Part shown: piece after piece, positions 20,277 to 56,169 of the stretch
Position numbering within the stretch: the stretch's first letter is position 1
Layout: each line of letters starts with the position of its first letter
Assembly (NCBI GenBank): GCA_041666225.1
Contig: JBAYHJ010000003.1
Span: forward strand, 17,116 to 81,115
Reading direction: 5' to 3'
Length of the DNA stretch: 64,000 bases
From: Minisyncoccota bacterium
GTDB taxonomy: Bacteria > Patescibacteriota > Minisyncoccia > Phycocordibacterales > UBA9973
Position numbers and translations under genes: made by a program
Notes under the pieces: model-generated
Told to the model about the DNA's origin: nothing
Seen by the model: the letters and a program-made list of their open reading frames with translations, nothing else
Databases searched by the model: none

Positions 20277-23200
20277 CTATTTTACCAAATTTACGATAAA
20301 TACCAAGCTATCAATTTTTATTTCTTGACCATTGTTTTCTTTAATTTTTATTTCTCTCACGTTAACTGTTTTTAAAAATTCATCCTTAAATTGATTTATC
20401 AATTCCTGACCTTCAACACTTGTTTCAATAACCAATGTGATAATATCATTTGGATTTAATCCATTCTTTTTTCTTATATCTTGTATGGCACGAACAAGCT
20501 CACGATAATTCCCTTCTTGTTTGAGTTCTTCGGTTAAATTTAGATCGAGTTCTACTTTCTTTTCATCACCCTTATCATACTTCAAATTTTTAACATTAAG
20601 TTCGTCTTTAATTATTTCTTCGTATTCAGTTGGTAATTCGTAATTCGTAATTATTAATTCTCTTAGTGGTTGCCTAACTGGAATTCCAGATTTTTGACGA
20701 GCTTGCAAGCCAAGAGAAACAATCTCTCTTGCTTTTTTCATTTCATCAATAACTTTTGTATTAATATTATCTATTGTAATATCTAAAAAGAAATCAGTCA
20801 GATGAACACTTATTGGATCAGATGAAAATCTAATTTTCTTCCAAATTTCTTCCGCAATAAAAGGCATAAAAGGTGCAAAAAGTTGAACCGTTACTTTTAA
20901 AACAAAATATAAAGTATGCTTTGCGTCTTCATTGCCATCTTTTAATCGATCACGGGAACGGCGTAAATACCAGGTTGAAAGGTCTTCAATAAATACCTCA
21001 AAAGGTTTCGTTGCTTGTGCCAAATCATATGCCTCCATACCATTTTTGACCTCAAGAACAAACTGTGATGTCCGAGCAATTATCCATTGATCGAGAACAT
21101 TTTTTGAAACTTCATATGATTGATCTTCAGTGTTTTGATTTCTATATAATTCATAGAAAGAGACAACATTATCAAACCTATTAATTATTTTACTAGATAC
21201 TTCTTGGACGAGTTTTTCAGAGAAATTTACATCTTCCCCCTTCATCAAAGTACTAGCCATCAGATAGAACCTGAGAGCGTCAACTCCGTACTTATCAAAT
21301 AAAAGCCAAGGATCTGGGAAATTATTTTTAGACTTGGACATCTTGCTTCCATCTTCTGCAAGGACTGTCCCTGTAGTTACAACATTTTCAAATGGAGCCT
21401 TCCCAAACAATATAGTAGAAATAGTGTGAGTATAGTAGAACCAAGTTCTCGTCTGGGCAATATATTCTGCTACAAATCCTGCTGGAAAATTATCTTTCTG
21501 CCAATCTGGATTCTCAAATGGATAGTGATCCTGTGCAAAAGGCATTGATCCTGACTCAAACCAACAATCTATAACTTCTGGAATTCTTTTGTATTCTTCA
21601 CCCTTTTCATCAATAAGTACTATTGAGTCAATATATGGGCGGTGCAAATCAAGCTCATAATCTTTATTATGAGGAAGAACTACAAAGTTTAATTCTCTTA
21701 TCTCGGCATTCTTCAAGTATGGAGGAAAATTTTCATCAGTAGGAAGTGTCTCGTAAGAGAAGCCTTGTACTACATGGCAAAGTGCACTAGTCTCCCCTGC
21801 ATGACCTATAAGGAGAATATTCTTACCGGAATATTGGCTATCTATTTCATAAATCATTTTCCCTACTCGATTAATAACTTGCGAATAACTCTCTCCGTTT
21901 GGCATCGCTTCAAATGGATGCTCCTTGTACTGATTACAATAAAATTCTTCGAAAGCTTCTCGCGACTTTCCTTCGTAATCCGAACTTACATCCCATTCTT
22001 TCTCAAGGTCGTTATAGATAATTTTATCCAGTGGATAGCCAATCTGCTCACAAAGAATTTTCGTAGTTTCTTTGGTTCTCTCTAAAGGAGATGCTATAAC
22101 TACGTCAACTTTCTCTTTGAAATTTTTTGCACTTTCTGTCACTTGCTCTACCCCAACTTTCGTAAGTTTACAATTATTGGATTCTTCATCTTCCATCACA
22201 ATCTCACTAACGTTGCATTCTGCTTGCCCATGACGCATGACCCAATACTTATTCCCTGACTTTTTAACTTTTGACTTTAAATCTTCAAGAGAATTCACTA
22301 CCATTATCTTACCACTTTCTGATTTCCAAATAGGAAGCGGGCTCGCCCAATAACGATTGCGGGAGATAGTCCAATCAGGAGCACTCTCCATAGTATTCTT
22401 GAAACGTCCCTCTTTTAAATGTTCAGGAATCCAATTCATATCTTCACCTTTTTTCAGTAGACTATCTTTAACTTTTTGTATATTTATAAACCAAGATGGT
22501 AGTGCATAATACAGAAGAGGTGTCTCACAACGATAACAGTGCGGATATGAGTGAATGATTTTCTCTTTTGCAAAGAGAGCTCCAGTGTGTGCCAGATATT
22601 TAATAATTAGAACATCTGTAGACTGCGGATCTTCCTTTGGTTTCACTTTTACATTTGGAAAGTCAGTTACCTCTTTTGAAAAATCTCCGTTGGGCTCCAC
22701 ATGACGAATAAATGGGATATCGTGCTCTTTTGCCAAGCCCATATCATCTTCACCAAAAGCTGGCGCTTCATGAGCAATCCCTGTCCCCTTATCTACTGTC
22801 ACAAAATCTGCATGCCAAACTTTCCAAATATTAGGATTTTTAGCTACTTCTTCATTTTTATAATATGGGAATACTGGCTCATAAGAAAGACCTACTAAAT
22901 CTTCCCCTTTTACTTCTTTTATTATTTCTCCATTATCAAATTTACTCTGTAAATTTTCATACAAATCTTTCGCTACTACATATACCTCTTCGCCTTTTTC
23001 TGTAATATTTTTTACTAAAATATAAAGCAATTCTTTATTTATAGCTATTGCAGTATCCCCTGGTAATGTCCAAGGAGTTGTAGTCCAAGCAAGTAAATAT
23101 GTATCTTTATATTTTTCATCTAAAATTTTAAATTTAACATATACAGAAATATCAGTAATATCCTTATAACTATTATCCATAGCAATTTCAGAATTTGCTA

Positions 23201-23762
23201 TTGGGGTCTCACAGCGTGGACAATAAGCAAGAACTCTTACTCCTTCGTAAAGTAATTCTTTTTTATTCATCTCACCCAATGCCCACCAGACACTTTCTAT
23301 GAAAGTGTTGTCCATAGTTTTATAAGAATTATCAAAATCCACCCAGCGACCCATACGATCTACTGTTTTCTTCCATTCATTTACATATGTTAGAACTTTA
23401 CTACGAGCATGCTCGGTAAATTTATCAATACCTAGAGCCTCAATAGCCTTCTTTCCAGAAATACCCAAATCTTTCTCTACAATATTCTCAATTGGCAATC
23501 CATGGCAATCCCAACCCCAACGACGAGGAACATTGTACCCACTCATAGTTTTGTATCTACCTATCACATCCTTTACTGTACTTCCAAGTATATGCCCATA
23601 ATGAGGAAGTCCTGATGCAAAAGGTGGCCCATCATAAAATACATACTTTCCCTTCGGTGCATCTTTCTCCAAACTCTTCTCGAAAATTTTATTTTCTTTC
23701 CAGAATTTTAAAACTTCTTCTTCTCGAAGCGCACTATTTGTTTTTTGATTTTTGTCCTCCAT
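20277..23762 (-). CDS. ileS: Isoleucyl-tRNA synthetase (type 2) carrying an inserted histidine-phosphatase (PGM-family) domain
   Basis: PPFASGLPHYGHIL motif, GWDCHGLP, WTISRNRYWASPLPIW and KMSKS. The W-to-KMSKS distance is about 330 aa against about 130 typical. The inserted residues (about 504-700) carry RHG, SPLERTKETT and GHAGE motifs. Confidence 0.9.
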   Translation of the reverse strand: MEDKNQKTNSALREEEVLKFWKENKIFEKSLEKDAPKGKYVFYDGPPFASGLPHYGHILGSTVKDVIGRYKTMSGYNVPRRWGWDCHGLPIENIVEKDLGISGKKAIEALGIDKFTEHARSKVLTYVNEWKKTVDRMGRWVDFDNSYKTMDNTFIESVWWALGEMNKKELLYEGVRVLAYCPRCETPIANSEIAMDNSYKDITDISVYVKFKILDEKYKDTYLLAWTTTPWTLPGDTAIAINKELLYILVKNITEKGEEVYVVAKDLYENLQSKFDNGEIIKEVKGEDLVGLSYEPVFPYYKNEEVAKNPNIWKVWHADFVTVDKGTGIAHEAPAFGEDDMGLAKEHDIPFIRHVEPNGDFSKEVTDFPNVKVKPKEDPQSTDVLIIKYLAHTGALFAKEKIIHSYPHCYRCETPLLYYALPSWFINIQKVKDSLLKKGEDMNWIPEHLKEGRFKNTMESAPDWTISRNRYWASPLPIWKSESGKIMVVNSLEDLKSKVKKSGNKYWVMRHGQAECNVSEIVMEDEESNNCKLTKVGVEQVTESAKNFKEKVDVVIASPLERTKETTKILCEQIGYPLDKIIYNDLEKEWDVSSDYEGKSREAFEEFYCNQYKEHPFEAMPNGESYSQVINRVGKMIYEIDSQYSGKNILLIGHAGETSALCHVVQGFSYETLPTDENFPPYLKNAEIRELNFVVLPHNKDYELDLHRPYIDSIVLIDEKGEEYKRIPEVIDCWFESGSMPFAQDHYPFENPDWQKDNFPAGFVAEYIAQTRTWFYYTHTISTILFGKAPFENVVTTGTVLAEDGSKMSKSKNNFPDPWLLFDKYGVDALRFYLMASTLMKGEDVNFSEKLVQEVSSKIINRFDNVVSFYELYRNQNTEDQSYEVSKNVLDQWIIARTSQFVLEVKNGMEAYDLAQATKPFEVFIEDLSTWYLRRSRDRLKDGNEDAKHTLYFVLKVTVQLFAPFMPFIAEEIWKKIRFSSDPISVHLTDFFLDITIDNINTKVIDEMKKAREIVSLGLQARQKSGIPVRQPLRELIITNYELPTEYEEIIKDELNVKNLKYDKGDEKKVELDLNLTEELKQEGNYRELVRAIQDIRKKNGLNPNDIITLVIETSVEGQELINQFKDEFLKTVNVREIKIKENNGQEIKIDSLVFIVNLVK

Positions 23763-26615: not shown

Positions 26616-28355
26616 CTACATCCTATCTGGTACCTCTATACCCAATAGCCAGAGACCGTTCTTCATAGTTTGTACAAATGCTTTTATAAGATTCAAATGA
26701 TAAGCCATATATTTGTTTTCATCCACAAGTATCTGAGTATTGCCATAGAAAGTATTAAAGCTACTTGCAAGTTCAGTGAGATAAGTTGCAATATGATGAG
26801 GCTCAAGCAAACTGTATGAACGCTCAACTACTTCAGGAAATTGATAAAGTAATTTTTCTAAATCTATAATATTTTCTGGAATCTCCCCATTGTCCAAGCC
26901 TTGCCTGGACATCTGAGATTTTGCAAGAATAGAATTTGCTCGAACAGCAGTGTATTGTAGATAAGGACCAGAGTCACCATCAAAAGAAATTGATTTCTCG
27001 AAATCATAAACAATATCACTACCAAGTGATGAGCGAAGAATAGAATATTTAAGTGCTGCTACTCCAACAATTTGAGATATTCTCTTTTTCTCTTCATTTG
27101 AAAGTTCTCGGTCTTTTACTTTCTCAAAAACAATATCCATTGAGTCTCGCAAAAGTGACTCACCCGTTATAACATTACCTTTTCGAGAAGACATTTTACC
27201 TGTGGACAGTCTCATCATCCCATGGGTAATATGCTTCATTCTACTTTCTAGATCTGGATGCATTAGGGAAATCGCTTTCTGAACAACTTTCATATATTCA
27301 GCTTGCTCTATTGCTGTCGTGACAATAGAAATATCAGGATTTTCTTTTTCAAACTTGGTAGTTGTTAGACCTATTTCTTTCGTTTCATAAGTAGGCAAGC
27401 CCTGAGAATTTATAAAAACACGAGTGTGAAGTTTCTTATCATAGTTCTCACCATGGAAAATAATTGCTCTATCTGATTCTTCAAATATTTTCCCAACATT
27501 CTCTCTTACAATTTTCTCTCCAATTGGAGCCATGACACTTTCGAAGAAGTAATAATCAAATTTTGTTCCTAAAAGTTTATATATTTCTTCAAATGCTTCA
27601 AGTGTAGCTTTTCTTCCCCAATCATAATATTCTTTTATTTTTTCATCACATTCACCACTTTTATTTATATAATTATAAATTTGTTTATTAATACTTTCTA
27701 TCTCTTTTTTTGCCTCATCATTTATCTCATATTCATTATTACCTTGTGCATAACTATCACCAATAGCTAATGAAAGAGCCAAATAAGATAATCCATTATC
27801 AGTAGTAGGATATCCTAATTTAATCAAATGATATATAGCCTTTGCAACATGAGGACCTACATCCCCTTGATAATTTGCTCGAATAGTTTTTGCCCCAGAG
27901 AATTCTACAATTCTAGAAACTGACTCACCTATGGCGTTAGCCATTAAGTGACCGATATGGAAAGGCTTGAAAGGATTCGGATCCGTGTACTCCACCATAA
28001 CTTTTTTCCCTTCAAGTATTTTATTCTTTCCCCACTTGTCTCCTTTATCTAAAATTTCACTTACACTCTCTGTGAAAAATTCTCGTGACAAATAAAAATT
28101 AATAAATCCAGCTCCTGCAGTCTCTATCTTTTCAATATCACCGAAGCCTTGCTTCGGTAAACCTTTTAATTCTAAGGCCATTTTTTCTGCTAATTCACGA
28201 GGGTTTGTTTTTTGTTGTTTTGCACAAACCATTGCCACATTTGTAGAATAATCTCCATTTTTAAAATCTTCAGGATGTTCAACGGAAAAAGAAACATCTT
28301 CTATTCCAAGATTTTTTAAAGCTTCATTTATTAATTTTTCTATTTGTTCTTTCAT
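26616..28355 (-). CDS. argS: Arginyl-tRNA synthetase
   Basis: N-terminal ArgRS add-on domain, HIGHLMANAIGESVSRI motif and a DALR-type anticodon-binding C-terminus. Confidence 0.9.
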   Translation of the reverse strand: MKEQIEKLINEALKNLGIEDVSFSVEHPEDFKNGDYSTNVAMVCAKQQKTNPRELAEKMALELKGLPKQGFGDIEKIETAGAGFINFYLSREFFTESVSEILDKGDKWGKNKILEGKKVMVEYTDPNPFKPFHIGHLMANAIGESVSRIVEFSGAKTIRANYQGDVGPHVAKAIYHLIKLGYPTTDNGLSYLALSLAIGDSYAQGNNEYEINDEAKKEIESINKQIYNYINKSGECDEKIKEYYDWGRKATLEAFEEIYKLLGTKFDYYFFESVMAPIGEKIVRENVGKIFEESDRAIIFHGENYDKKLHTRVFINSQGLPTYETKEIGLTTTKFEKENPDISIVTTAIEQAEYMKVVQKAISLMHPDLESRMKHITHGMMRLSTGKMSSRKGNVITGESLLRDSMDIVFEKVKDRELSNEEKKRISQIVGVAALKYSILRSSLGSDIVYDFEKSISFDGDSGPYLQYTAVRANSILAKSQMSRQGLDNGEIPENIIDLEKLLYQFPEVVERSYSLLEPHHIATYLTELASSFNTFYGNTQILVDENKYMAYHLNLIKAFVQTMKNGLWLLGIEVPDRM

Positions 28356-28777
28356 TATTTTCTTCCAGTCGAGCCAAAACCTCCCATTCCACGAGATGAA
28401 TCACTAAGAGTATCAGTTTCCTCAATTTCTGCAATCACAACTGGAACTATCACTAATTGAGAAACTTTATCACCCTCTTCTACAGTATATGGTTCACTTC
28501 CCAAATTTACAAGGTGGGTATTGTATTCCCCTCTGTACCCTGCATCAAATACTCCACCCATATGAATAAGTCCTGCTTTTGAAATACTTGATTTGTCCAT
28601 TATAATTCCTGCATTCCCTTCTGGAAATTCCATAGCAAAACCATGGAAAAATCTATAATGTTCCATTGGTTTTATAGTTACAGTTTCCATAGCATACATA
28701 TCCATACCAACATCTCCAGGGTGAGCGTAGTTTGGTAATTTTGCATTCTCCTTTAATTTTTTAATCTTTATTTTCAT
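28355..28777 (-). CDS. dut: dUTP diphosphatase
   Basis: dUTPase motifs: GDVGMDM, IHMGGVFDAGYRGE, RGMGGFGSTG. Confidence 0.85.
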   Translation of the reverse strand: MKIKIKKLKENAKLPNYAHPGDVGMDMYAMETVTIKPMEHYRFFHGFAMEFPEGNAGIIMDKSSISKAGLIHMGGVFDAGYRGEYNTHLVNLGSEPYTVEEGDKVSQLVIVPVVIAEIEETDTLSDSSRGMGGFGSTGRK

Positions 28778-29252
28778 TGTATTTAAATAATTTTATAAGT
28801 TCTTTAAAATTTTTAAAAAATATTTCTGGTTTTTCTTCAAGTAATTCTTCTAATTCATTTTTTGAAAACCATTTTATATCTTCAACTTCTTCATCTTGTT
28901 TTACAAAGTTATAATCATGATCAACAACAGCAGTGTATAATTTAGCAAAACAACTATAGACACGGGCCTTATTAACAGCATTAAAATTTATATTAACTAA
29001 TCCTATTTCTTCCTCAGCTTCTTTTATGATATTTGATTCATAAGTCTCTCCTTCTTCTACCGTTCCTCCAACCGCCGGACCCCACAATCCTGGGTCATGT
29101 TTTTTACTAAAAGCTCTTTGGGCTAAAAGAATATTACCATCCTTGTCTGTTACCCAGAGCCCTGTTGCACGAACTATATCTTGAGAATCCCTATTTCCCC
29201 TATCTTTGTATCCTATTATTTCATCTTTGTCATTTACAATTGGAATTCTCAT
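28761..29252 (-). CDS. NUDIX hydrolase
   Basis: Nudix box GGTVEEGETYESNIIKEAEEEIGL. Confidence 0.8.
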   Translation of the reverse strand: MRIPIVNDKDEIIGYKDRGNRDSQDIVRATGLWVTDKDGNILLAQRAFSKKHDPGLWGPAVGGTVEEGETYESNIIKEAEEEIGLVNINFNAVNKARVYSCFAKLYTAVVDHDYNFVKQDEEVEDIKWFSKNELEELLEEKPEIFFKNFKELIKLFKYNENKD

Positions 29253-29950
29253 TTTAATATTTTTTTAACCTCTTTATAAACCATATCATGCACATCTTCG
29301 CGTGATAAAATTTTTCCTTTTTGAGAACATTCAATTTTAATAAAATTAGGATTTTCTTTTACCAAATTAAGAGCACTTTTTCTTGAATTAACTAAAAATT
29401 CCATATCATTTTCATAAACATCTTTTTTCTTTTTCAAATACTCTCTTTTCATCTTACTACTATCCCTTTCTTTTAAAAGATCTAGGACAATTTTAATTGG
29501 TAAACTCAAATACAAAGTAATGTCTGGTTTTGGAATACCAAAAACTTCATATTCCATTTGGTTTAACCATTTCATAAAATCTGCTCTTTTCTTGGCACTT
29601 TTAATTTTTCCACCTTGGTGAATTTGATTTGCCGATACATAACGATTTGCAATAACCACGTATCCCTTTGAAAGCCATTCTTTCATCTCAACACTAGACT
29701 CCCATCTATCTGCAGCAAAAAGTACTGAAGTAATTTTTGGGTGAACACCTAGAAAATTATAATATTGCTCAGAAAGACAGTGCCCAATAAATTTTCCAAA
29801 GAAATTTTTATAATACTCAGGAAAATCAACAACTTTTACTTTGTGACCATCTTTTTTCAAATGCTCAGTTAAGTAAGCCACTTGAGTCGCCTTCCCACTT
29901 CCATCTGTCCCATCTATAACAATCAACTTCCCTTTATATTTTTGTTTCAT
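29249..29950 (-). CDS. tmk: Thymidylate (dTMP) kinase
   Basis: P-loop IVIDGTDGSGKATQ and the DRW/LID region. 233 aa, with a C-terminal extension. Confidence 0.85.
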   Translation of the reverse strand: MKQKYKGKLIVIDGTDGSGKATQVAYLTEHLKKDGHKVKVVDFPEYYKNFFGKFIGHCLSEQYYNFLGVHPKITSVLFAADRWESSVEMKEWLSKGYVVIANRYVSANQIHQGGKIKSAKKRADFMKWLNQMEYEVFGIPKPDITLYLSLPIKIVLDLLKERDSSKMKREYLKKKKDVYENDMEFLVNSRKSALNLVKENPNFIKIECSQKGKILSREDVHDMVYKEVKKILK

Positions 29951-30595: not shown

Positions 30596-31024
30596 TTATT
30601 TTTTGTCAGAATAATTTTTGAAAATGTTTTTTAATATATCTAAAACTTCTTCTTTGTTTGAATAATGAGAAACTTTACAATTTGAATTACCGGCAATCAT
30701 AGCAGAAACTTTCTTGTCTTCTTTCTTATTATATAAACAAAAAATATTTTTATTTAATTTTTCTGCATAAGCAATTTCATAACCAACTCCAAGAGAAGGA
30801 ACTGAGACATCTGCAATAATAATATCAGATTCCATTATATAGGAAATATCTCGATTATATATTTCCTTATCTGTCATATTAGGACTTCCATAACTAGTAA
30901 GTGATTTATCGGCTACAAATTCACTAATCACTTCTCCGTATTTAACTAACTCCTTCACAATAAAATCATACCATTCAGCATGTTCTCTTCCTCCTCTTAT
31001 TGATCCAGAAAAATATATTTTCAT
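30596..31024 (-). CDS. 2'-deoxynucleoside 5'-phosphate N-hydrolase (DNPH1/Rcl family)
   Basis: YFSGSIRGGREH, YGEVISEFVAD, SDIIIADVSVPSLGVGYEIA and KVSAMIAG align closely with the DNPH1 motifs YFCGSIRGGRED / PSLGVGYELG / VLSAMIRG. Confidence 0.8.
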   Translation of the reverse strand: MKIYFSGSIRGGREHAEWYDFIVKELVKYGEVISEFVADKSLTSYGSPNMTDKEIYNRDISYIMESDIIIADVSVPSLGVGYEIAYAEKLNKNIFCLYNKKEDKKVSAMIAGNSNCKVSHYSNKEEVLDILKNIFKNYSDKK

Positions 31025-31590
31025 AAATTATTTTTTAAATTATAAGCTAATATATCATAACCATGCTCGGTATGATCCTCTCTTGCTACACCCCATAACT
31101 CCAATATATCACTTAATTCATTTTGAATTTTTTCTGTTTCATCTGCAGTGCCAAATTTTTCTAGTTCTATGTATGAACCAAGTCCAACAACATTATCAAG
31201 GCAAATTTCAATTTCACCCAATTTGTAAGTTTCCCTATCTTTTTCTGTTATACAAAATTCATAAAATCCCAAAGTTAAAATAATTGATTCTAAATTAGTA
31301 ATATCTTCTTCTTTTATTTCAATTTCGTACTCTTTGCAATCTGATTCACATTTCACTGGTTGTTTAAGAGTAAAAATAACTTTTTTATTTTTTTCTGATT
31401 CCTGTTTTCTAATTCTCAAATAGTTAATACCAAGTAAATTTATCCCCTCTTCTATTTTTCTAATATGATTCGGCCAAAAAACAATATCTCTTTGGTGTTT
31501 TTCACCTAAAAATTCTGCCCTAGAATTTTTAATATATTCTAAAACTTTTTCTCTATCTCTCAATTTTGCTTTTACTTCTATTTCATTCAT
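31021..31590 (-). CDS. CYTH-domain protein (triphosphate tunnel metalloenzyme / class IV adenylyl cyclase-like)
   Basis: N-terminal MNEIEVKAKL (the EIEVK signature) and about 189 aa. Confidence 0.65.
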   Translation of the reverse strand: MNEIEVKAKLRDREKVLEYIKNSRAEFLGEKHQRDIVFWPNHIRKIEEGINLLGINYLRIRKQESEKNKKVIFTLKQPVKCESDCKEYEIEIKEEDITNLESIILTLGFYEFCITEKDRETYKLGEIEICLDNVVGLGSYIELEKFGTADETEKIQNELSDILELWGVAREDHTEHGYDILAYNLKNNL

Positions 31591-31593
31591 ATT

Positions 31594-32790
31594 TTATTTA
31601 CCTCTTAAAATTCTATCCATCTTAGTGGCAATTTTTATCATATCATTCTCTTTTCTTCCTCTTGTTGTTTCAGCACAAGTACCTAGTCGAACTCCTGATG
31701 GATCCATAACACTTCGTGTGTCCCCTGGAATAGTATTCATATTCACAATAATTCCTGATTTTTCTAATTTGATACTTGCCTCTTTACCACTGATACCCTT
31801 CCCGTCCATCCACGTGTCCATCAATATTAAATGTGAATCCGTTCCACCTGAGATAATATGCCAGCCGAGTTTTTGTAATTCTTTAGCTAGGACTTTAGCA
31901 TTTTTAATAACTTGTTTTGCATATTTTTTAAACTCAGGCTTTGCTGCCTCAGCAAGTGCTACAGCGACGCCTGCAATATTGTTTTCGTGTGGTCCACCAA
32001 AAAGTCCTGGAGTCACCATCTTGTCTAATTTTTTATCAAAACCTCTTTCGTCTTTTTTAACAAATAGAATTGCCTGGCGTGGACCACGAAGAGACTTATG
32101 AGTTGTTGTCATCACAGAGTCAGCATATGGAAATGGTGATGGATAAGCACCACCTGCAATAAGTCCCGCAAAGTGTGAAATATCTACATGTAGAATCGCT
32201 CCCCGCCTACCATCGGGGTAAACCACTGCATCTGCAATTTCTCTGAACTTTTTAAAATCAACAACTCTAGGATAAGCAGTAAAACCACAAACAATAATAT
32301 CGGGCTTTTCAGCTATTGCTAATTTTTTCAAAGCATCATAATCTATAACTTCGGTTTTAGAATCAAGCTCAAATTGTAATGGCTTCCAAAGTTTCCCCGT
32401 CATTGAAAGTGGATGACCATGAGTTAAATGCCCTCCTGAAGTTAATTTCATTCCCATTATTTTTCCACCAATAGGAACTAGCGCAGAGTATAAAGCAAAG
32501 TTGGCAGGACTTCCTGATAGAAGTTGAACATTTACATGCCAATCTTCTTTTTTTAATTTAAAAAGTTTGAGAGCACGTTCCATGCAAAGAACTTCAACTT
32601 TGTCTATAATTTCATTACCACCATAATATCTACGTCCTGGGTAACCTTCAGCGTATTTATTTGTCAGTTTTGAACCAACTGCCCTAAGAACATCGTCAGA
32701 TACATAGTTCTCTGAAGCAATTAAGTTTATAACACTTTTTTGTCTTTTTTCTTCTGCCTTTATAAGTTTTTCTATTTGTTTATCTTTCAT
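31594..32790 (-). CDS. glyA: Serine hydroxymethyltransferase
   Basis: LIASENYVS and the PLP-lysine region TTTHKSLRGPR. Confidence 0.9.
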   Translation of the reverse strand: MKDKQIEKLIKAEEKRQKSVINLIASENYVSDDVLRAVGSKLTNKYAEGYPGRRYYGGNEIIDKVEVLCMERALKLFKLKKEDWHVNVQLLSGSPANFALYSALVPIGGKIMGMKLTSGGHLTHGHPLSMTGKLWKPLQFELDSKTEVIDYDALKKLAIAEKPDIIVCGFTAYPRVVDFKKFREIADAVVYPDGRRGAILHVDISHFAGLIAGGAYPSPFPYADSVMTTTHKSLRGPRQAILFVKKDERGFDKKLDKMVTPGLFGGPHENNIAGVAVALAEAAKPEFKKYAKQVIKNAKVLAKELQKLGWHIISGGTDSHLILMDTWMDGKGISGKEASIKLEKSGIIVNMNTIPGDTRSVMDPSGVRLGTCAETTRGRKENDMIKIATKMDRILRGK

Positions 32791-32891: not shown

Positions 32892-33293
32892 TTATAGTAG
32901 TTTTTTTATTTTTTCGACAAGTAAGTCAATATATTCTTCTATTTGATTTAAATCGTTAACTTGAACAATTTCAGTTTTCATACCATTACAAATTAATGGA
33001 ACTAAATGATTTTCATTTGTTAAAATAATTATTTGTTTTTTTATTCCATATGCGTATCCCAATTCAGCCCCCCAATTAGGAGATTCATTTAGGGCAATGG
33101 CCAATATTAATGATGATTCTTCAATCCCTCTTATATCTTGGCTAAATAATATTTCATCTTTTTCTTCTTGATTGGTATCGCGATGTGGAAGATAGCAAGT
33201 TATTCCACTTTTTTCAAGAGCTTCACCTATTTTAGGATTAAATTCAACATTCCACTGATTAGTGAAAGTTGAAGTTAGATATATATTTTTCAT
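32892..33293 (-). CDS. Nucleoside 2-deoxyribosyltransferase-like protein
   Basis: 133 aa with NDT-family pattern (SSLILAIALNESPNWGAELGYAYGIKKQIIIL). Confidence 0.55.
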   Translation of the reverse strand: MKNIYLTSTFTNQWNVEFNPKIGEALEKSGITCYLPHRDTNQEEKDEILFSQDIRGIEESSLILAIALNESPNWGAELGYAYGIKKQIIILTNENHLVPLICNGMKTEIVQVNDLNQIEEYIDLLVEKIKKLL

Positions 33294-33311: not shown

Positions 33312-33851
33312 TTATTTATCAAACTGATGACCTAAAATATTTTTAGGGTTTCTTGGATTAAACAATATTTCACTATCATCAACAAGATAAACTTTTTTTA
33401 TTCCGATTCCCAACATCTTATCCCAACAGGGCTTACAACACCACCAGTGTCCCCATAGATATAATTCTGGATTATTAATATCTTTAATATTTCTTTTTTG
33501 AATATCTAAAACTGCTCTAGATTCTGCATGACTTTCATTTGTTGCACACCCAGGACAAGCCCAATATTTTTCACCAGTAGGAATATGAAGTAAATGTCTT
33601 ATACAATATTTTTTATGTAATTTTATCATCCAAGAAGATGATAAAGGATTTTTATTAGACTTTTCAGATATTATTTTACCATCACAAACAATAACTGCAC
33701 CAGTTGGTTGCTGTTGGTCATTTGATTTTTTTGCCTCTTCTTTTGCTTTACTCATTAAGTTATTACTTAGAGGTACAGATTCAATAAAACAACCCTCTGG
33801 TAAATAGGGATATTTTACACTTTCTTTTACATTATTTTGTGATGTTTCCAT
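33312..33851 (-). CDS. Deoxycytidylate (dCMP) deaminase-family zinc deaminase
   Basis: HAE zinc-ligand motif and PGCATNESHAESRAV...CCKPC (the H(A/C)E...PCxxC signature). Confidence 0.7.
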   Translation of the reverse strand: METSQNNVKESVKYPYLPEGCFIESVPLSNNLMSKAKEEAKKSNDQQQPTGAVIVCDGKIISEKSNKNPLSSSWMIKLHKKYCIRHLLHIPTGEKYWACPGCATNESHAESRAVLDIQKRNIKDINNPELYLWGHWWCCKPCWDKMLGIGIKKVYLVDDSEILFNPRNPKNILGHQFDK

Positions 33852-33880: not shown

Positions 33881-34729
33881 ATGACTACTTTTGATACAAT
33901 CTATAAAAATTTAATAAAAAAAATAATAGAAGAAGGTATTGAAGAATTAAATGAACGCACAGGTCATAAGATAAAAATAATACCTGGACTTACTTTCCAA
34001 ATTGATATAGAGAAAGAAGGGTTTCCAATATTAACTCTTCGTAAGAATCCGATTAAATCACCCATTGCTGAGCAGGTATGGTTTATAACTGGAGATAAAG
34101 ATACAGAATTTTTAAGAAAATATACAAAAATGTGGGATGAATTTATTGAAGAAGATGGGACTATAACTTCTGCTTATGGATATAGATGGAGACATCATTT
34201 TGGCAGAGACCAATTAGACCAACTAATTAAACACCTAACAGAAGAGCCTCATTCAAGACAAGGAGTAGTTATAACATGGGACCCTTCTGATGATGGTCTA
34301 TATGGTAAAGGATTAAAAGCAACATACAAAAAGAATGCGCCATGCCCTTTCGCTTTTACGGTAAACATAGTGGGTGGGAGACTTCATCTTCATAATATAA
34401 TTCGATCAAACGATATGATGCTTGGTTGTACATTTGATACATTTGGATTTAGCCTACTTATGTGTGCTCTCGCTCAAAAATTGGGAGTAAGGCCAGGAAT
34501 TTATACTCATACTATTTCCAACGCACATATATATGACAATCATTACGAAGGAGCACTTGAATTGATTAAAAGAGAAAATAATCATCCAAATATTTTTCCA
34601 GTATTTCCAGAAAATATTTACGACAGAGCCTTTAATAAAGATGAAACACTGGTTGGTGAAATTTATGAATCTTTTGCCCCATATTACCATCCAGATGAAC
34701 CAATAAAAGGTTTAGACATAATAAAATAA
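33881..34729 (+). CDS. Thymidylate synthase (ThyA) family enzyme with atypical specificity residues (PCP instead of PCH; Asp at the E. coli Asn177 position)
   Basis: Gap-free alignment to E. coli ThyA across the catalytic Cys region: NAPCPFAFTVNIVGGRLHLHNIIRSNDMMLGCTFDTFGFSLL vs [41 protein letters not shown]. The N177 equivalent is D, and H147 is P. Confidence 0.75.
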   Translation: MTTFDTIYKNLIKKIIEEGIEELNERTGHKIKIIPGLTFQIDIEKEGFPILTLRKNPIKSPIAEQVWFITGDKDTEFLRKYTKMWDEFIEEDGTITSAYGYRWRHHFGRDQLDQLIKHLTEEPHSRQGVVITWDPSDDGLYGKGLKATYKKNAPCPFAFTVNIVGGRLHLHNIIRSNDMMLGCTFDTFGFSLLMCALAQKLGVRPGIYTHTISNAHIYDNHYEGALELIKRENNHPNIFPVFPENIYDRAFNKDETLVGEIYESFAPYYHPDEPIKGLDIIK

Positions 34730-34730
34730 T

Positions 34731-35231
34731 ATGATTTTATCTATAATTTCAGCCATAGGAAAAAACAATGAAATCGGTAAAAGTAATGCTTTGTTATGGG
34801 ATTTGCCCGCTGATATGAAGCATTTTAGAGAAACAACAAGTGGCCATGCTGTCATTATGGGTCAGAAAACTTTTGAATCCATAGGACGTCCCCTTCCAAA
34901 CCGTCGTAATATAATACTTACTAAAGATGAAAATTTTAAACAAGAAGGGATAGAAATTGTTTACTCAATTCCAGAACTTATGGAATTACTAGACAAAAAA
35001 ACAAGCAAAGACGAAGAAGGATTTATAATCGGAGGAGGTCAGATATATCGATTGTTTATGGATGTTGCGGACCGACTATATATCACTCACGTCGAGGAAT
35101 CATTCCCTGATGCAGATACATTCTTCCCAGAGATTGATACAACTAAATGGGAAAAAACAAAAAATGAATTTTATCCCGCTAATGAATTAAATAAATATAA
35201 TCTTGAGTTTGCAACATATACTAAAAAATAA
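34731..35231 (+). CDS. folA: Dihydrofolate reductase
   Basis: MILSIISAIGKNNEIGKSNALLWDLPADMKHF...VIMGQKTFESIGRPLPNRRNIILT is the canonical DHFR pattern. Confidence 0.85.
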   Translation: MILSIISAIGKNNEIGKSNALLWDLPADMKHFRETTSGHAVIMGQKTFESIGRPLPNRRNIILTKDENFKQEGIEIVYSIPELMELLDKKTSKDEEGFIIGGGQIYRLFMDVADRLYITHVEESFPDADTFFPEIDTTKWEKTKNEFYPANELNKYNLEFATYTKK

Positions 35232-35232
35232 A

Positions 35233-35262
35233 ACCCTCATATGAGGGTTTTATTTTTTATGG
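35233..35262. terminator. Terminator after folA
   Basis: AACCCTCATATGAGGGTT hairpin followed by TTTATTTTTT. Confidence 0.7.
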
Positions 35263-35586
35263 ATCTACTTCTGTTCTTTCTCTAATAAAAATATTTTTAC
35301 CATCTGGTGACTTTGTTTTTATATATTTACGATGTTTATTAATTTCTATTTTACGGACTAACTCATTCTCTAAGTCATAACCAAGAATCTCACACATACC
35401 TAAAAGGAAAATAGCGACATCTGCAAATTCTTCAGCAACACCATTTTGATTTTTATTAAATTTAGAAAAAGCTTCAGATAACTCTTCATGCGCCCGACAA
35501 AATTCAATAGCAACATCAGTAGTATTGAAGCCTTTTCCCAACTTATTACGCATCACTTCTTTTTGTAATTCTTTCAAATCTACCAT
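35257..35586 (-). CDS. MazG-like all-alpha NTP pyrophosphohydrolase (DCTPP1-like)
   Basis: 109 aa with EELSEA...EEFADVAIFLLGMCEILGYDLE (MazG EExxE/D motifs). Confidence 0.65.
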   Translation of the reverse strand: MVDLKELQKEVMRNKLGKGFNTTDVAIEFCRAHEELSEAFSKFNKNQNGVAEEFADVAIFLLGMCEILGYDLENELVRKIEINKHRKYIKTKSPDGKNIFIRERTEVDP

Positions 35587-40869: not shown

Positions 40870-41418
40870 TTATTTGAGCATTTCTCTTAATATAGTTAAT
40901 GCTCTGTGGTGGTGACTTTTTACTGTATTTAAGGGTTTACCAAGAAGTTCCCCTATTTCTTTAAAAGTCATATCTTCTTGATAATAAAGAACAAGGACTT
41001 CTTTATAATTGGTAGGAATTTCGTCTAAAAGTTTATTTAAAAATTCTTTGTCTTCTAATTTAATTAGAGCTTCATCAGGTAGGACTACATCATCCTCTAT
41101 ATTATCGGCAAAACTTTCTTCTTCTTTATCTAAGGCTGAAAAGTTTATCATTTTTTTCTTTCTCAAATAATCAGTGACGGTATTGCGAGCTATTGTAAAA
41201 ATCCAAGTTTTAAAACTCGCTTTGTTGTAATCGAATTTTTTAATATTTTTCCAGACTTTTATAAAAACATCTTGGACAATATCATTGGCATAATCAACAC
41301 CAACAAAACGTGCAGAAAAATTAAAAATTGATGGTGTATATTTATATACCAACTCTTTAAAAACCTCTTCATTACCAAGTAGGTATTCCTTTATTTTTAA
41401 TTCATCACTATTCTCCAT
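40870..41418 (-). CDS. ECF-type RNA polymerase sigma factor
   Basis: Region 2 (DIVQDVFIKVWKNIKKFD...FKTWIFTIARNTVTDYLRKK) and region 4 HTH. Confidence 0.8.
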   Translation of the reverse strand: MENSDELKIKEYLLGNEEVFKELVYKYTPSIFNFSARFVGVDYANDIVQDVFIKVWKNIKKFDYNKASFKTWIFTIARNTVTDYLRKKKMINFSALDKEEESFADNIEDDVVLPDEALIKLEDKEFLNKLLDEIPTNYKEVLVLYYQEDMTFKEIGELLGKPLNTVKSHHHRALTILREMLK

Positions 41419-41504: not shown

Positions 41505-42125
41505 TTAGGTTTTTTTGTTGTAATCTGGGTGACTTTCTGGAATAGAAAAAATATAATTTGCATATCGAGACATTGCAAATAATACACTAGAAAGTCTATT
41601 CATATAAGAAATTGTATGGGGATTAATATTTCTAACTCCTTCTTCAGAAACTGCAATAATTCGACGCTCCCCTTTGCGGGCAAGAGTACGGGCAAAATCT
41701 AAACCTGAACTTATTAAACTTCCTCCTGAGATAGTAAAAGAAGTAATCGGTGGTAAAACTTTTCCTATTTCATTTATTATTTTTTCAATTTTAAGTAATT
41801 CTTTTTTTGGAACAAACATTTTTGATCCACCAAGTTCTGCTTGAATAACAAAAAGATTTTGCTGAATTTCCTCTATAAGACTGCTATATGAAAATTTCCT
41901 TGAGCCAACTTTTAAAATTACTTTATCAATATCGGCGTATACTTTTATAATTCCTAAATATGCATTTAATTCATCAATAGAACCCAGTGCTTCAATAAGG
42001 GCAGCGCTTTTAGAAATTCTAGTTTGCTTACAATCAAAAAGAGTAGTTGTACCATTGTCTCCAAAACCTGTATATAAGATATTTTTATCTTTTTTAAGAT
42101 GATTTTGTATCTTCTTCATAAACAA
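41505..42125 (-). CDS. ATP:cob(I)alamin adenosyltransferase, PduO/MMAB type
   Basis: YTGFGDNGTTTL...ALGSIDELNAYLG N-terminal signature. Confidence 0.75.
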   Translation of the reverse strand: MFMKKIQNHLKKDKNILYTGFGDNGTTTLFDCKQTRISKSAALIEALGSIDELNAYLGIIKVYADIDKVILKVGSRKFSYSSLIEEIQQNLFVIQAELGGSKMFVPKKELLKIEKIINEIGKVLPPITSFTISGGSLISSGLDFARTLARKGERRIIAVSEEGVRNINPHTISYMNRLSSVLFAMSRYANYIFSIPESHPDYNKKT

Positions 42126-47509: not shown

Positions 47510-48217
47510 TTATCTCATTATATTATTTTTATTTCCTATCCATGGACGAACTTGTTCTACAGTAAAAATATTATTTTCATCTATATCTCCAATAATTTTA
47601 ATTGTTTCTCCAATTTTTATTTGAGCTCTGCCTCCAACAAAAGCACTATCAATATCTATAATCCAAATAATACCATTTGAATCAATAATTTGGATTAAAT
47701 TTTCCTTGATTCCGATAATTTTTCCAGAAAGTAAACCATTCTCTGGATGAGACCAGAACTCATCTTTATCAAATATAAACCCCCTATACATAGGAACATG
47801 GTCCCTTAATGATTCTTCAATTATTTTTCCAGTACCGATTATGTTAAGTGTTGATCCTGCGACGATAGTTATTACTATATATACACATACGATTGTAATA
47901 GTCCGGTGTCTATATCCTAAAAATGTTTTCCTGTAATAATAATCTCCCAAAATAGTGAAGACCGCTAAAAAGACAAACCAAAAATATGGTATGGTTTTAA
48001 CAATAAAATTTAGACCAAATTTTTGATATAGATACCAGTCATTATTAAATAAAAGTGAAATTATCACAGAAAAAGAAACAGCTCCTACAACAATAGAAAA
48101 TCCAACGAGAGACCAAAAAATAACCCTCTTTAAACTAAAGATGTTTTTAGAAATTGGCTTTATGCCACTTTCTTTAATTCTTTGTAATGCTATTTGGCTT
48201 ATATCTTTATTTTCCAT
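47510..48217 (-). CDS. Putative anti-sigma factor (membrane)
   Basis: Overlaps the ECF sigma stop by 11 nt. About 4 TM segments. Confidence 0.4.
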   Translation of the reverse strand: MENKDISQIALQRIKESGIKPISKNIFSLKRVIFWSLVGFSIVVGAVSFSVIISLLFNNDWYLYQKFGLNFIVKTIPYFWFVFLAVFTILGDYYYRKTFLGYRHRTITIVCVYIVITIVAGSTLNIIGTGKIIEESLRDHVPMYRGFIFDKDEFWSHPENGLLSGKIIGIKENLIQIIDSNGIIWIIDIDSAFVGGRAQIKIGETIKIIGDIDENNIFTVEQVRPWIGNKNNIMR

Positions 48218-48779
48218 TTAATTTCTCATACTCTTCCTTAAAGAGTTTCTTACCTCTTAATATTAAATTTCCCACAGTACTTATTGGTTTTTTTAAAATA
48301 TCTGAAATTTCTACATAATCTTTTTCATCCAAAAAACGTAAAACTAAAACCTCACGATATTTCTTATCTAATTTTGAAAGAGCTTCATCTATCTTTTCTT
48401 TATCAAAAGAATTATCAATTTCTTTCTCTATATTAAAAGCATCTTCAAATCTATCGATATCTTCTTTTTCAAAAGGAATTGTAGGCCGAACTACTTTTTT
48501 TCGTATTTCACTTACGGTCTGATTGTGTGTAATACGATATATCCAAGAAGAAAATTTTAAATCCTTGTCAAACTCATTTAAATTATAATAGACCTTAACA
48601 AAAACATCTTGCAAAATATCCCCAGCATCTTCCCGACTAAGTTTAGAAATTCTCATGATGTAATACAGCAACTTACTTTCATATCTTCTAATCAAACACA
48701 AAAAATGATCTGGATTGTCGAGTGACAATTCGACCAGTTCATTATCTGTTTTGTTGATGCAATATTCATGGTTTACCAT
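48207..48779 (-). CDS. ECF-type RNA polymerase sigma factor
   Basis: Sigma-70 region 2 (ILQDVFVKVYYNLNEFD..FSSWIYRITHNQT) and region 4. Confidence 0.8.
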   Translation of the reverse strand: MVNHEYCINKTDNELVELSLDNPDHFLCLIRRYESKLLYYIMRISKLSREDAGDILQDVFVKVYYNLNEFDKDLKFSSWIYRITHNQTVSEIRKKVVRPTIPFEKEDIDRFEDAFNIEKEIDNSFDKEKIDEALSKLDKKYREVLVLRFLDEKDYVEISDILKKPISTVGNLILRGKKLFKEEYEKLNGK

Positions 48780-54626: not shown

Positions 54627-55631
54627 TTAATCATCTTCATCTTCGTGTTCAAATCTTGATTTTACTTCTTTGAAGATATCATCTTCTTTCATGGAACTTT
54701 CAGAGTTAAGTAGCTCAATATATGCTCCAGCTGAATCACCTTCTAATTCCTTTTTTTCTGCTTCATCTAAAAAGTTTTTTGCTTCATTAAATATTTGATC
54801 CACGTCATCATTATTTATATCTTCTATCTCAGAAATACTAATTGAAGTTGTCGTATTTTTATTGGCTTTTGAATTAATCTTGGCCTTAACAATATCTTTC
54901 TTTTTATTATATTTATCAGAAATATCATCTTCTTCATCATCATCTTCTTCTTCATTTTTTATACTGATTTTTACTTTATCTGCATTTGATCTAGCTGTTT
55001 TAGAAATCTGATTGTCTATGGTATCAAAATCTAATTCATTGTCTTCGGCCATTATAATATTTAAAACACGAGCATGAGCATTCATTTCTGCTTTAAAATT
55101 AATAGCAATTTCATCGGCCTCAGTTGATAAATTTTCTTTAGTCACTTTTTCAAGTTCTTTATTTAAAGAAATACTGTGTTTTTCTAAAAGATTATTTAAT
55201 TTTTTTTCTTTTGAATCATCTAATTTTCCAGAAGAGGCCAACATTTCAGCTTCAACTAAACGCTCTGTAGCTAGGTTGCTTTGATATTTGGCTTTAGATT
55301 TTGACGAAAAAGTGAAAGCTCCACGAATAGGTTCTACGACACTAACTTTGATGGGATAGAGGACGTCTTCCGGTAAGCTTTTTTCTGAAGCGAGAACGAC
55401 TCCACTACTTGTAAGAATAATAACTAAAGGAACAACGACATAATAAACCAACTGACTTTTGTGTATTTTCAACATAAAAGAATAACCAAACCAAGGGCTT
55501 TGAACTCTTTGTTGTGGGATATTAGAATTTAAAATACGATCAAAAATCTGCTTTTTTTCATCAGTAGTCATCATTATCTTTTTAATTTCTTTTATTCCAT
55601 TGTTTAAATTTTTATGTTCCATATTATTCAT
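54627..55631 (-). CDS. Putative anti-sigma factor (single TM, acidic coiled-coil-rich extracytoplasmic domain)
   Basis: Overlaps the upstream ECF sigma by 8 nt. One TM segment near residues 60-80. Assigned by position. Confidence 0.4.
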   Translation of the reverse strand: MNNMEHKNLNNGIKEIKKIMMTTDEKKQIFDRILNSNIPQQRVQSPWFGYSFMLKIHKSQLVYYVVVPLVIILTSSGVVLASEKSLPEDVLYPIKVSVVEPIRGAFTFSSKSKAKYQSNLATERLVEAEMLASSGKLDDSKEKKLNNLLEKHSISLNKELEKVTKENLSTEADEIAINFKAEMNAHARVLNIIMAEDNELDFDTIDNQISKTARSNADKVKISIKNEEEDDDEEDDISDKYNKKKDIVKAKINSKANKNTTTSISISEIEDINNDDVDQIFNEAKNFLDEAEKKELEGDSAGAYIELLNSESSMKEDDIFKEVKSRFEHEDEDD

Positions 55632-56169
55632 TTTGATTTATATCATCATTATATCCTGCTTTTTTCTTTAACTCCAATAACCCTCTATTTATCCTAACTG
55701 ATGCAGCATTGGCTGATATTCCTAAGATCTCACCTATTTCTACCGGGGATAAATCTTCTACATAACGAAGATAAACTGGTTGTCTGTAACTTGGAGTTAA
55801 TTCACTAATTTTCTCTAAAAGATATCTCCCCTCTGCTTTAGTTTCAAGTAAAGAGGTGGACATTTCATCTGAAGGATCATACCCCATCTCTCCTTCGTTA
55901 AAAATAGCATCATTCATCTTAAAAAAAGGGATACTCTTCTTTTTTCGATACCAATCAATAATCAGATTACGAGTTATTGTAAAGAGAAAAGCTCTCGTAT
56001 TAAGAATTTCTTTTCCACTTAATAGATTTTGCCATAATCGCAAAAATGTCTCTTCGGTAATATCCATAGCCTGCTCACGATCGGATACTCGAATAAGGCA
56101 AAACCGAAAGATTGCATCTGCTTCATTTTCATATATCTTTTCAAATGTATTTTTAATATCTGCCTTCAT
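55624..56169 (-). CDS. ECF-type RNA polymerase sigma factor
   Basis: Region 2 (AIFRFCLIRVSDREQAMDITEETFLRLW...FLFTITRNLIIDWYRKKK) and region 4 (LSPVEIGEILGISANAASVRINRG). Confidence 0.8.
   Translation of the reverse strand: MKADIKNTFEKIYENEADAIFRFCLIRVSDREQAMDITEETFLRLWQNLLSGKEILNTRAFLFTITRNLIIDWYRKKKSIPFFKMNDAIFNEGEMGYDPSDEMSTSLLETKAEGRYLLEKISELTPSYRQPVYLRYVEDLSPVEIGEILGISANAASVRINRGLLELKKKAGYNDDINQNE

Follow-up and report, generated by a model that had tools for sequence, protein, structure and literature searches.

Which nucleotide does the ThyA-like enzyme of this locus methylate? The gene in question lies in a stretch of 64,000 nucleotides from a Minisyncoccota bacterium (contig JBAYHJ010000003.1), below called the window; it occupies positions 33881-34729 of the plus strand, and its product of 282 amino acids is below called ThyA-D. 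Textbooks describe two enzymes for the synthesis of thymidylate, ThyA and ThyX, both of which methylate deoxyuridine monophosphate (dUMP). An earlier note on this DNA had suggested that the gene encodes a ThyA homologue modifying the C5 position of a cytosine nucleotide. Judging by the lineage-wide Asp and Pro signature, the published discriminating positions 177 and 147 and the nearest phage homologues, which are of the Xp12 type, this suggestion is supported. With a probability of about 0.7, the gene encodes a folate-dependent reductive C5-methyltransferase of deoxycytidine monophosphate (dCMP), similar to that of phage XP12, rather than a dUMP-specific thymidylate synthase (TS), and would serve the route from dCMP via 5-methyl-dCMP to thymidine monophosphate (dTMP).

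The protein belongs to the Thymidylat_synt family (PF00303, E = 7.5e-55) and is named thymidylate synthase in all database sources. The source organism is a Patescibacteria bacterium (Paceibacteria/Nomurabacteria-like), and an identical copy of the protein is on record from a Candidatus Paceibacterota metagenome-assembled genome. Its score is under the equivalog cut-offs of seven of the eight NCBIfam ThyA models (e.g. 147.6 against 327 bits); the only model passed is TIGR03284, and that narrowly (117.1 against 108.35 bits). ThyA-D was aligned by phmmer to three solved ThyA structures (3ix6, 6auj, 4h0r), each independently. In these alignments the query fragment RSNDMMLGCTFDTFGF is placed without gaps on RSADIFLGVPFNIASY, and the motif APCPFAF stands opposite PPCHCLF. 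The MAFFT alignment with E. coli ThyA has the same register and is also gap-free. Indeed, the stretch from the catalytic Cys to Arg166 is 20 residues long in both proteins, and thus the gap-free alignment assumed earlier is confirmed. Cys146 of the E. coli enzyme corresponds to Cys155 of the query, His147 to Pro156, Asn177 to Asp186, and the motif Arg166-Ser167-x-Asp169 to Arg175-Ser176-Asn-Asp178. The codons at 34403-34438 read back as RSNDMMLGCTFD. Against all three structures the uracil-reading position holds Asp, not Asn, and both replacements named in the earlier note, Asp for Asn177 and Pro for His147, are found in the structure alignments, in the MAFFT alignment and in the codons themselves.

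The replacements are not limited to these two positions. In E. coli numbering, which is used below for the specificity residues, Gln165 is replaced by Ile, Arg127 by Gln, Trp83 by Phe, and Asp205 by Asn. The residues Arg21, Glu58, Trp80, Tyr94, Arg126, His207 and Tyr209 are retained, and the C-terminal tail aligns to the tail of E. coli ThyA. The Ser of the RSxD motif (Ser176) is of the deoxyribose type. The residue three positions before the catalytic Cys, denoted Cys-3, is Asn152, rather than Asp, Glu or Leu; Asn152, Pro154 and Cys155 are invariant across alignments A2, A3 and A6. The identity of ThyA-D is 29% to E. coli ThyA, 24% to gp42 of phage T4, and 37% to the homologue from Xp12. An AF2 model of the protein has pLDDT 84 and pTM 0.87, and its top Foldseek matches are full-length thymidylate synthases with TM scores of 0.7-0.83.

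When GTDB was scanned with an 11-sequence alignment, one genome for each species, relatives of ThyA-D were found in at least 325 genomes. The best 80 of these genomes all belong to Patescibacteria, and all synteny counts given below refer to these 80 loci. Residues were counted in 78 near-full-length orthologues (57-91% identical) from distinct Patescibacteria species. Asp177 and Phe83 are present in all 78, Pro147 in 76, and position 127 is either Gln or His in 78 of 78. As Asp is invariant in 78 distinct species, the signature is lineage-wide, and chance or sequencing error as its source was ruled out. An exhaustive search of 1.84 billion protein cluster representatives returned about 143 full-length top matches, 123 of them Asp-type, and 98 of the latter also have Pro147. 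Canonical ThyA sequences, with Trp, Arg, His, Gln and Asn at the positions considered, first appear near E = 1e-33; Asn is present in all 17 canonical relatives from this search. In the neighbour-joining tree these 17 Asn-type sequences form a pure clade cleanly separated from the Asp-type sequences. Within the latter group the bacterial orthologues come together in one nested clade. ThyA-D is thus a member of the Asp-type clade, and it is closer to the Xp12 enzyme than to gp42 or E. coli ThyA.

Among 50,697 phage genome records, 4,328 have a match to ThyA-D. The best matches differ from ordinary phage td genes: they come from Xanthomonas phage Xp12 and its relatives (Mallos, Elanor, DoCa10, the Achromobacter JWX group, Pseudomonas phiH2 and PA_LZ02, Stenotrophomonas A1432), with 37-40% identity and E about 1e-47. 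The Xp12 protein (QNN97214, genome MT664984) shares with ThyA-D the fold, Asp177, Pro147, Phe83, a hydrophobic residue at position 165, Asn at Cys-3, the motifs PCP and SAYGYRWR.HFGRDQL, an insertion after WDP, and the C-terminal tail. Position 127 is different, as Xp12 has Arg where the Patescibacteria orthologues have Gln or His, and the overall identity is only 37%. The Xp12 homologue makes 5-methyldeoxycytidine (5mdC) in E. coli, as do five of seven tested metagenomic ThyA homologues of the Asp type (bioRxiv 10.1101/2024.12.05.627091). In a 2021 study of ThyA homologues from phage contigs with modified cytosine, positions 177 and 147 were the top two discriminators (PMC8670742). At these two positions, with Asp at 177 and a residue other than His at 147, ThyA-D has the signature of the Xp12 type.

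ThyA-D is part of a conserved gene module. The dihydrofolate reductase (DHFR) gene folA starts at 34731, one nucleotide past the ThyA-D stop codon, and DHFR is directly downstream of ThyA-D in 72 loci. On the other side, only 29 bp separate the start codon of ThyA-D from that of a divergent gene of the dCMP deaminase family; in 76 loci this gene is likewise a divergent neighbour of ThyA-D. Both neighbours had been listed in the earlier note, and its proposal of a reductive transfer producing dihydrofolate (DHF) is supported by the regular presence of DHFR and by the retained tail. A gene for a MazG-like protein is found in 57 loci, its products being 59-88% identical, and at least 72% identical in all but two. 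The serine hydroxymethyltransferase (SHMT) gene is within 6 kb of ThyA-D in 31 loci. The conserved unit, present in the chromosomes of hundreds of Patescibacteria species, is the module and not the neighbourhood; in a relative with 77% identity the four core genes are again together, but between ribosomal-protein operons.

The deaminase is divergent in sequence. The best match of its profile (A4) is the dCMP deaminase 4p9c (E = 1.3e-7), followed by 2hvv, 2w4l and 1vq2; the matched enzymes are the dCMP deaminases of cyanophage S-TIM5, S. mutans, human and phage T4. The zinc-binding and catalytic motifs H-x-E and C-x-x-C (His108, Glu110, Cys139, Cys142) do not vary, and the protein has an additional His/Cys3 cluster. 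The same subtype is encoded divergently upstream of ThyA-D in the two nearest sister lineages as well (hhalign probability 99%). From its adjacency to ThyA-D and co-inheritance with it, we infer a preference for substrates containing 5-methylcytosine (5mC). Most likely, the deaminase acts after the methylase, converting a 5-methyl-dC nucleotide to a dT nucleotide, as proposed for phages. The MazG-like protein matches the pyrophosphatase family phrog_3301 (5e-12), and its profile matches 4qgp (3.6e-5); the matches to DCTPP1/RS21-C6 are weak (0.007-0.07).

A similar arrangement is known from phages. In Xp12 the genes follow in the order ThyA-like, dCMP deaminase, DHFR, and thus the cluster with a deaminase-family gene and DHFR is common to the phage and the bacterial locus. 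However, the Xp12 deaminase gene is downstream and on the same strand, whereas the Patescibacteria gene is upstream and divergent, and the two deaminases belong to different subfamilies, the bacterial one being very divergent. The Xp12 product replaces all C of the phage DNA by 5mC, whereas in Patescibacteria, where the gene is chromosomal and cellular, the likely end product is dTMP. More generally, phage deaminases encoded next to Asp-type ThyA prefer 5mC substrates and were proposed to supply dT nucleotides, and MazG/PRA-PH-type genes co-localise with phage Asp-type ThyA genes (bioRxiv 10.1101/2024.12.05.627091). The phage modules of ThyA(Asp177), a 5mC-selective deaminase (mSCD) and PRA-PH/MazG (PMC8670742; bioRxiv 10.1101/2024.12.05.627091) follow the same three-component logic and the same proposed chemistry, from dCMP to a 5mdC nucleotide to a dT nucleotide with no dUMP-dependent TS. 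Descriptions of these modules are limited to viral contigs in which 5mC has completely taken the place of C, whereas the bacterial version is cellular and includes DHFR and SHMT. Still closer copies of ThyA-D, 58-63% identical to the bacterial one, were found in IMG/VR contigs that are bona fide phage: they encode an RNA ligase, a polynucleotide kinase, a RecE-like exonuclease and a terminase-like protein. DHFR is absent from these contigs, and in at least one of them (L093) a deaminase gene is directly upstream of ThyA-D on the same strand. Other near relatives also reside on phage contigs, again beside a deaminase gene. The bacterial module looks like a domesticated phage module, or like the source of it.

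The reaction sequence that we infer, including the substrates of the methylase, the deaminase and the MazG-like enzyme and the direction of flux, would be as follows. By analogy with the TS family, Cys155 would attack C6 of dCMP, and Asp186 would read the 4-amino group and protonate N3 of the cytosine. Methylenetetrahydrofolate (CH2-THF) would donate first the carbon and then the hydride, yielding 5-methyl-dCMP and DHF. The downstream DHFR and the nearby SHMT would convert DHF to tetrahydrofolate and back to CH2-THF. The divergent deaminase would act on the 5-methyl-dC nucleotide at the mono- or triphosphate level, and dTMP kinase (Tmk) would take the dT nucleotide on to dTDP. Thymidylate would thus be made by methylation followed by deamination, rather than by deamination followed by methylation. 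The MazG-like enzyme may supply dCMP from dCTP, or may remove 5-methyl-dCTP from the pool.

The earlier note left three kinds of cytosine-nucleotide enzyme in play, and only one of them, the Xp12-type methylase, is favoured by the residues. Hydroxymethylases of both other types share with ThyA-D the Asp at the base-specificity position and the Cys/Glu/Tyr catalytic core. A dCMP hydroxymethylase (dCH) of the T4 gp42 type, producing 5-hydroxymethyl-dCMP, would also agree with the motif S-A-Y, where Ser precedes the catalytic-base Tyr by two positions (compared with S-N-Y in gp42; PMC6400193), and a gene for a DNPH1-like N-hydrolase, of the type acting on 5-hydroxymethyl-dUMP, lies 3 kb away. However, T4 dCH needs Asp or Glu at Cys-3 for water activation and is inactive as the D145N mutant (PMC6400193), whereas ThyA-D has the invariant Asn152 there. 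Further, the T4 enzyme is without the C-terminal tail by which TS closes its site for hydride transfer, and has no requirement for DHFR (PMC6400193), whereas ThyA-D retains the tail and its gene is regularly coupled to DHFR. Xp12, which has the same S-A-Y combined with Asn, makes 5mdC, and ThyA-D is less similar to gp42 than to the Xp12 protein. This makes a T4-type activity very improbable. A CMP hydroxymethylase of the MilA/BcmA type, for a metabolite derived from 5-hydroxymethylcytosine, is even harder to credit. It might seem to agree with the two genes of the nucleoside 2-deoxyribosyltransferase (NDT) family in the same row of minus-strand genes, if the NDT-family neighbour were a MilB/BcmB-like N-glycosidase. 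However, none of the 80 loci contains a counterpart of the gene next to the deaminase, and the other one is DNPH1-like, not MilB-like. At the positions of Ser167 and Arg126, which TS and dCH share, MilA and BcmA carry Ala and Lys (PMC5175136); ThyA-D has Ser and Arg, and thus is of the deoxyribose type. In addition, its C-terminus aligns with the TS tail and not with the five-helix domain, and the DHFR coupling again argues against this activity. Taken together, Asn at Cys-3, the tail, the DHFR coupling and the Ser/Arg pair make a reductive dCMP C5-methyltransferase the most specific reading.

The choice between dCMP and dUMP is less clear-cut. Canonical ThyA (EC 2.1.1.45) has in common with ThyA-D the fold, Cys146, Glu58, Tyr94, Arg21, Arg126, Arg166, Ser167, Asp169, His207, Tyr209, the C-terminal tail and the coupling to DHFR. 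One possibility is that ThyA-D is an ordinary dUMP-specific TS that tolerates Asp177, and that the deaminase (from dCMP) and the dUTPase supply dUMP in the classical pathway. Several observations weigh on this side, or more generally against dCMP methylation. The deaminase, ThyA, DHFR, SHMT, Tmk and a bona fide dUTPase are exactly the gene set of the classical dUMP route, complete and clustered, TIGR03284 is passed, and all databases name the protein a thymidylate synthase. A search of the window and of 860 kb of related loci detected no second thyA or thyX, and yet the cell needs some enzyme that makes dTMP; as the search covered these loci and not whole genomes, it is not evidence of absence. 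The dUTPase, encoded near the module in 17 loci, would yield dUMP without an obvious consumer if ThyA-D rejects dUMP; ThyA-D may keep some activity on dUMP, or the dUMP may be discarded. The predicted specificity is read from residues and from homologues that are only 37-40% identical. In the AF2 model, pLDDT falls below 50 in the K-N-A-P loop that immediately precedes the catalytic Cys (residues 151-154, positions 34331-34342). BLASTP of the Patescibacteria deaminase against the Xp12 deaminase found no significant similarity, and the link between the two is by family and synteny only. Finally, the one characterised phage deaminase selective for 5mC acts on the triphosphate, not the monophosphate (bioRxiv 10.1101/2024.12.05.627091).

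On the other hand, Asn177 is the residue that reads uracil, and its change to Asp shifts the preference to dCMP, according to work cited in PMC8670742. In the engineered TS variants L. casei N229D and E. coli N177D (PDB 1njc, N229D with dCMP) this single replacement shifts TS towards methylation of dCMP; the same residue is changed in ThyA-D, whereas the natural lineage also has additional co-varying substitutions. Along with the change to Asp, the remaining members of the O4 water network, His147 and Gln165, are gone, and this combination is fixed throughout the 78 species. Added to this are the Gln and Phe at positions 127 and 83, scores far under the other seven equivalog cut-offs (148 against 327 bits, for one), the separation of the two clades in the tree, and the clustering of ThyA-D with Xp12-type enzymes that make 5mdC in vivo. 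An exclusively dUMP-specific TS is therefore unlikely. Substitutions at Asn229/177 of TS often keep some dUMP activity. A dual-substrate enzyme could methylate both dCMP and dUMP, so that dUMP from the dUTPase is used directly and 5-methyl-dCMP reaches dTMP through the deaminase. The bona fide dUTPase near the module, here and in other species, is consistent with such an enzyme. However, the absence of both His147 and Gln165 speaks for an enzyme that has specialised away from uracil; we consider a dual-substrate enzyme slightly less plausible still than a dUMP-specific TS. Methylation of dCMP thus remains the preferred reading.

A more radical variant is that 5-methyl-dCTP is a polymerase substrate, the MazG-like enzyme depletes dCTP, and the chromosome carries 5mC for most or all of its cytosine, as in XP12-type phages. 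The components of the module are the same as in the phage systems, and phage contigs carry the 58-63% identical copies mentioned above. Such a genome-wide modification would have escaped short-read metagenomics. We regard this variant as quite improbable; if true, no cellular organism before this one would have been known to replace a base wholesale by a non-canonical one.

The enzyme type and the logic of methylase followed by deaminase are already known from phages. In the literature searched we found no report that connects an Asp-type ThyA or 5-methyl-dCMP with Patescibacteria, the Candidate Phyla Radiation (CPR) or Parcubacteria, and no report of a conserved chromosomal system of this kind in cells. 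If the dCMP reading is correct, a large bacterial radiation would have a third cellular route to dTMP, in which dCMP is methylated and then deaminated, and a phage DNA-modification module would have been domesticated as housekeeping metabolism. Hundreds of thymidylate synthase annotations, together with CPR metabolic reconstructions built on them, would need correcting. The neighbouring genes would make a new group of candidate 5-methyl-dC-nucleotide deaminases available, enzymes that are of interest to methylation sequencing. Then 5-methyl-dCMP would be a standing metabolite, and the exclusion of 5mC from DNA, or its entry into DNA, would become a testable question.

Features of the window considered in this analysis; functions marked as predicted are sequence-based assignments.
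Feature	Positions	Strand	Basis
ThyA-fold enzyme ThyA-D with Asp177/Pro147 signature, predicted Xp12-type dCMP C5-methyltransferase	33881-34729	+	PF00303, site extraction, phage matches
Codons Asn152-Ala-Pro-Cys155-Pro156 (NAPCP): catalytic Cys, Pro for His147, Asn at Cys-3	34334-34348	+	codons read directly
Codons R-S-N-D-M-M-L-G-C-T-F-D, Arg175 to Asp186: RSxD motif and Asp at the Asn177 position	34403-34438	+	codons read directly, alignments
Dihydrofolate reductase (folA), predicted DHF recycling	34731-35231	+	PF00186, 1.6e-58
dCMP-deaminase-family protein, predicted 5-methyl-dC-nucleotide deaminase	33312-33851	-	PF00383, 43.7 bits
MazG-like all-alpha NTP pyrophosphohydrolase, predicted (5-methyl-)dCTP pyrophosphatase	35257-35586	-	PF12643, 24.9 bits
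Serine hydroxymethyltransferase, predicted CH2-THF regeneration	31594-32790	-	PF00464, 1.1e-145
NDT-family protein (133 aa), between deaminase and SHMT	32892-33293	-	family match
CYTH-domain protein	31021-31590	-	NCBIfam class IV adenylate cyclase (CyaB), 83.9 against 57.95 bits
DNPH1/Rcl-like 2'-deoxynucleoside 5'-phosphate N-hydrolase	30596-31024	-	E 7e-25 to 2khz, about 1e-23 to human DNPH1
dTMP kinase (Tmk)	29249-29950	-	overlaps NUDIX gene
NUDIX hydrolase	28761-29252	-	overlaps neighbours
dUTPase	28355-28777	-	113 bits against equivalog cut-off 103
IleRS (1161 aa) with inserted domain	20277-23762	-	
ECF-type sigma-70 family protein	40870-41418	-	
ECF-type sigma-70 family protein	48207-48779	-	
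ECF-type sigma-70 family protein	55624-56169	-	
Cobalamin adenosyltransferase	41505-42125	-	

The module is situated at the end of a pyrimidine-deoxynucleotide island (28.3-35.6 kb) with the gene order dUTPase, NUDIX, dTMP kinase, PaaX-like, DNPH1/Rcl-like, CYTH, SHMT, NDT-like, deaminase, ThyA-D, DHFR, MazG-like. The dUTPase, NUDIX and dTMP kinase genes form a tight overlapping operon flanking the island; in the related loci, Tmk is near the module in 14 cases, fewer than the dUTPase. The NUDIX protein was considered as a candidate NudG-like (5-methyl-)dCTPase and rejected, as only sub-threshold matches to a NudG-type pyrimidine dNTP diphosphatase and to YfcD were observed. The human DNPH1 match of the DNPH1-like protein carries the name 5-hydroxymethyl-dUMP N-hydrolase. 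This protein might serve to remove dUMP or hydroxymethylated side products. It is only loosely linked to the module, being encoded no more than 6 kb from ThyA-D in 20 loci. The CYTH gene, although inside the island, is not conserved with the module. In the AF2 model of ThyA-D, confidence is low not only in the loop before the catalytic Cys, but also over the lineage-specific insertion after WDP (residues about 135-150).

The window is a fragment of a cellular chromosome. It contains the genes for IleRS, ArgRS, MetRS and a class II aminoacyl-tRNA synthetase, RNase J, SSB, ribosomal protein S6, RecO, sigma factors, and three tRNAs. A phage or prophage origin of the window was ruled out by the synthetases, RNase J, SSB, S6 and the tRNAs, and by the position of the relative's module between ribosomal operons. 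Thus the hallmark of the Xp12-type systems, a virus with 5mC in place of C as the host of the gene, is replaced here by a bacterial chromosome. The class I catalytic domain of the IleRS is interrupted midway by an inserted histidine-phosphatase (His_Phos_1) domain, which takes up residues 507-674. Three genes of the extracytoplasmic function (ECF) type of the sigma-70 family occur within 16 kb, which is dense for a reduced genome. The cobalamin adenosyltransferase gene, also found near the module in loci L005 and L006, is a hint that another part of the genome encodes a B12-dependent (class II) ribonucleotide reductase. If such a reductase is present, deoxynucleotides would be supplied as di- or triphosphates.

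Some viral and other relatives of ThyA-D have an unusual domain structure or unusual motifs. On one phage-like contig a dCMP-deaminase domain, homologous to the Patescibacteria deaminase, is fused to an Asp-type ThyA (P0137, 433 amino acids, L087 8001-9302), and this gene adjoins a gene of the DCD/dUTPase family and a ribonucleotide reductase gene. Two further proteins, P0143 (432 amino acids) and P0198 (424 amino acids), have similar lengths. The Asp-type ThyA P0124 (L004 8001-9401), from a contig with a MurD-like gene, has an N-terminal extension of approximately 190 amino acids, in which no similarity to the deaminase profile was observed. Finally, IMG/VR contigs L126-L171 contain a separate group of viral ThyA-like proteins, which share AYGYRWR and in which the catalytic Cys is followed by Asn (CN). 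Instead of RSxDxxLGxPF[ND] this group has the motif RSNDxWWGAYGAN, and, by the spacing, it accounts for 44 of the 80 viral matches.

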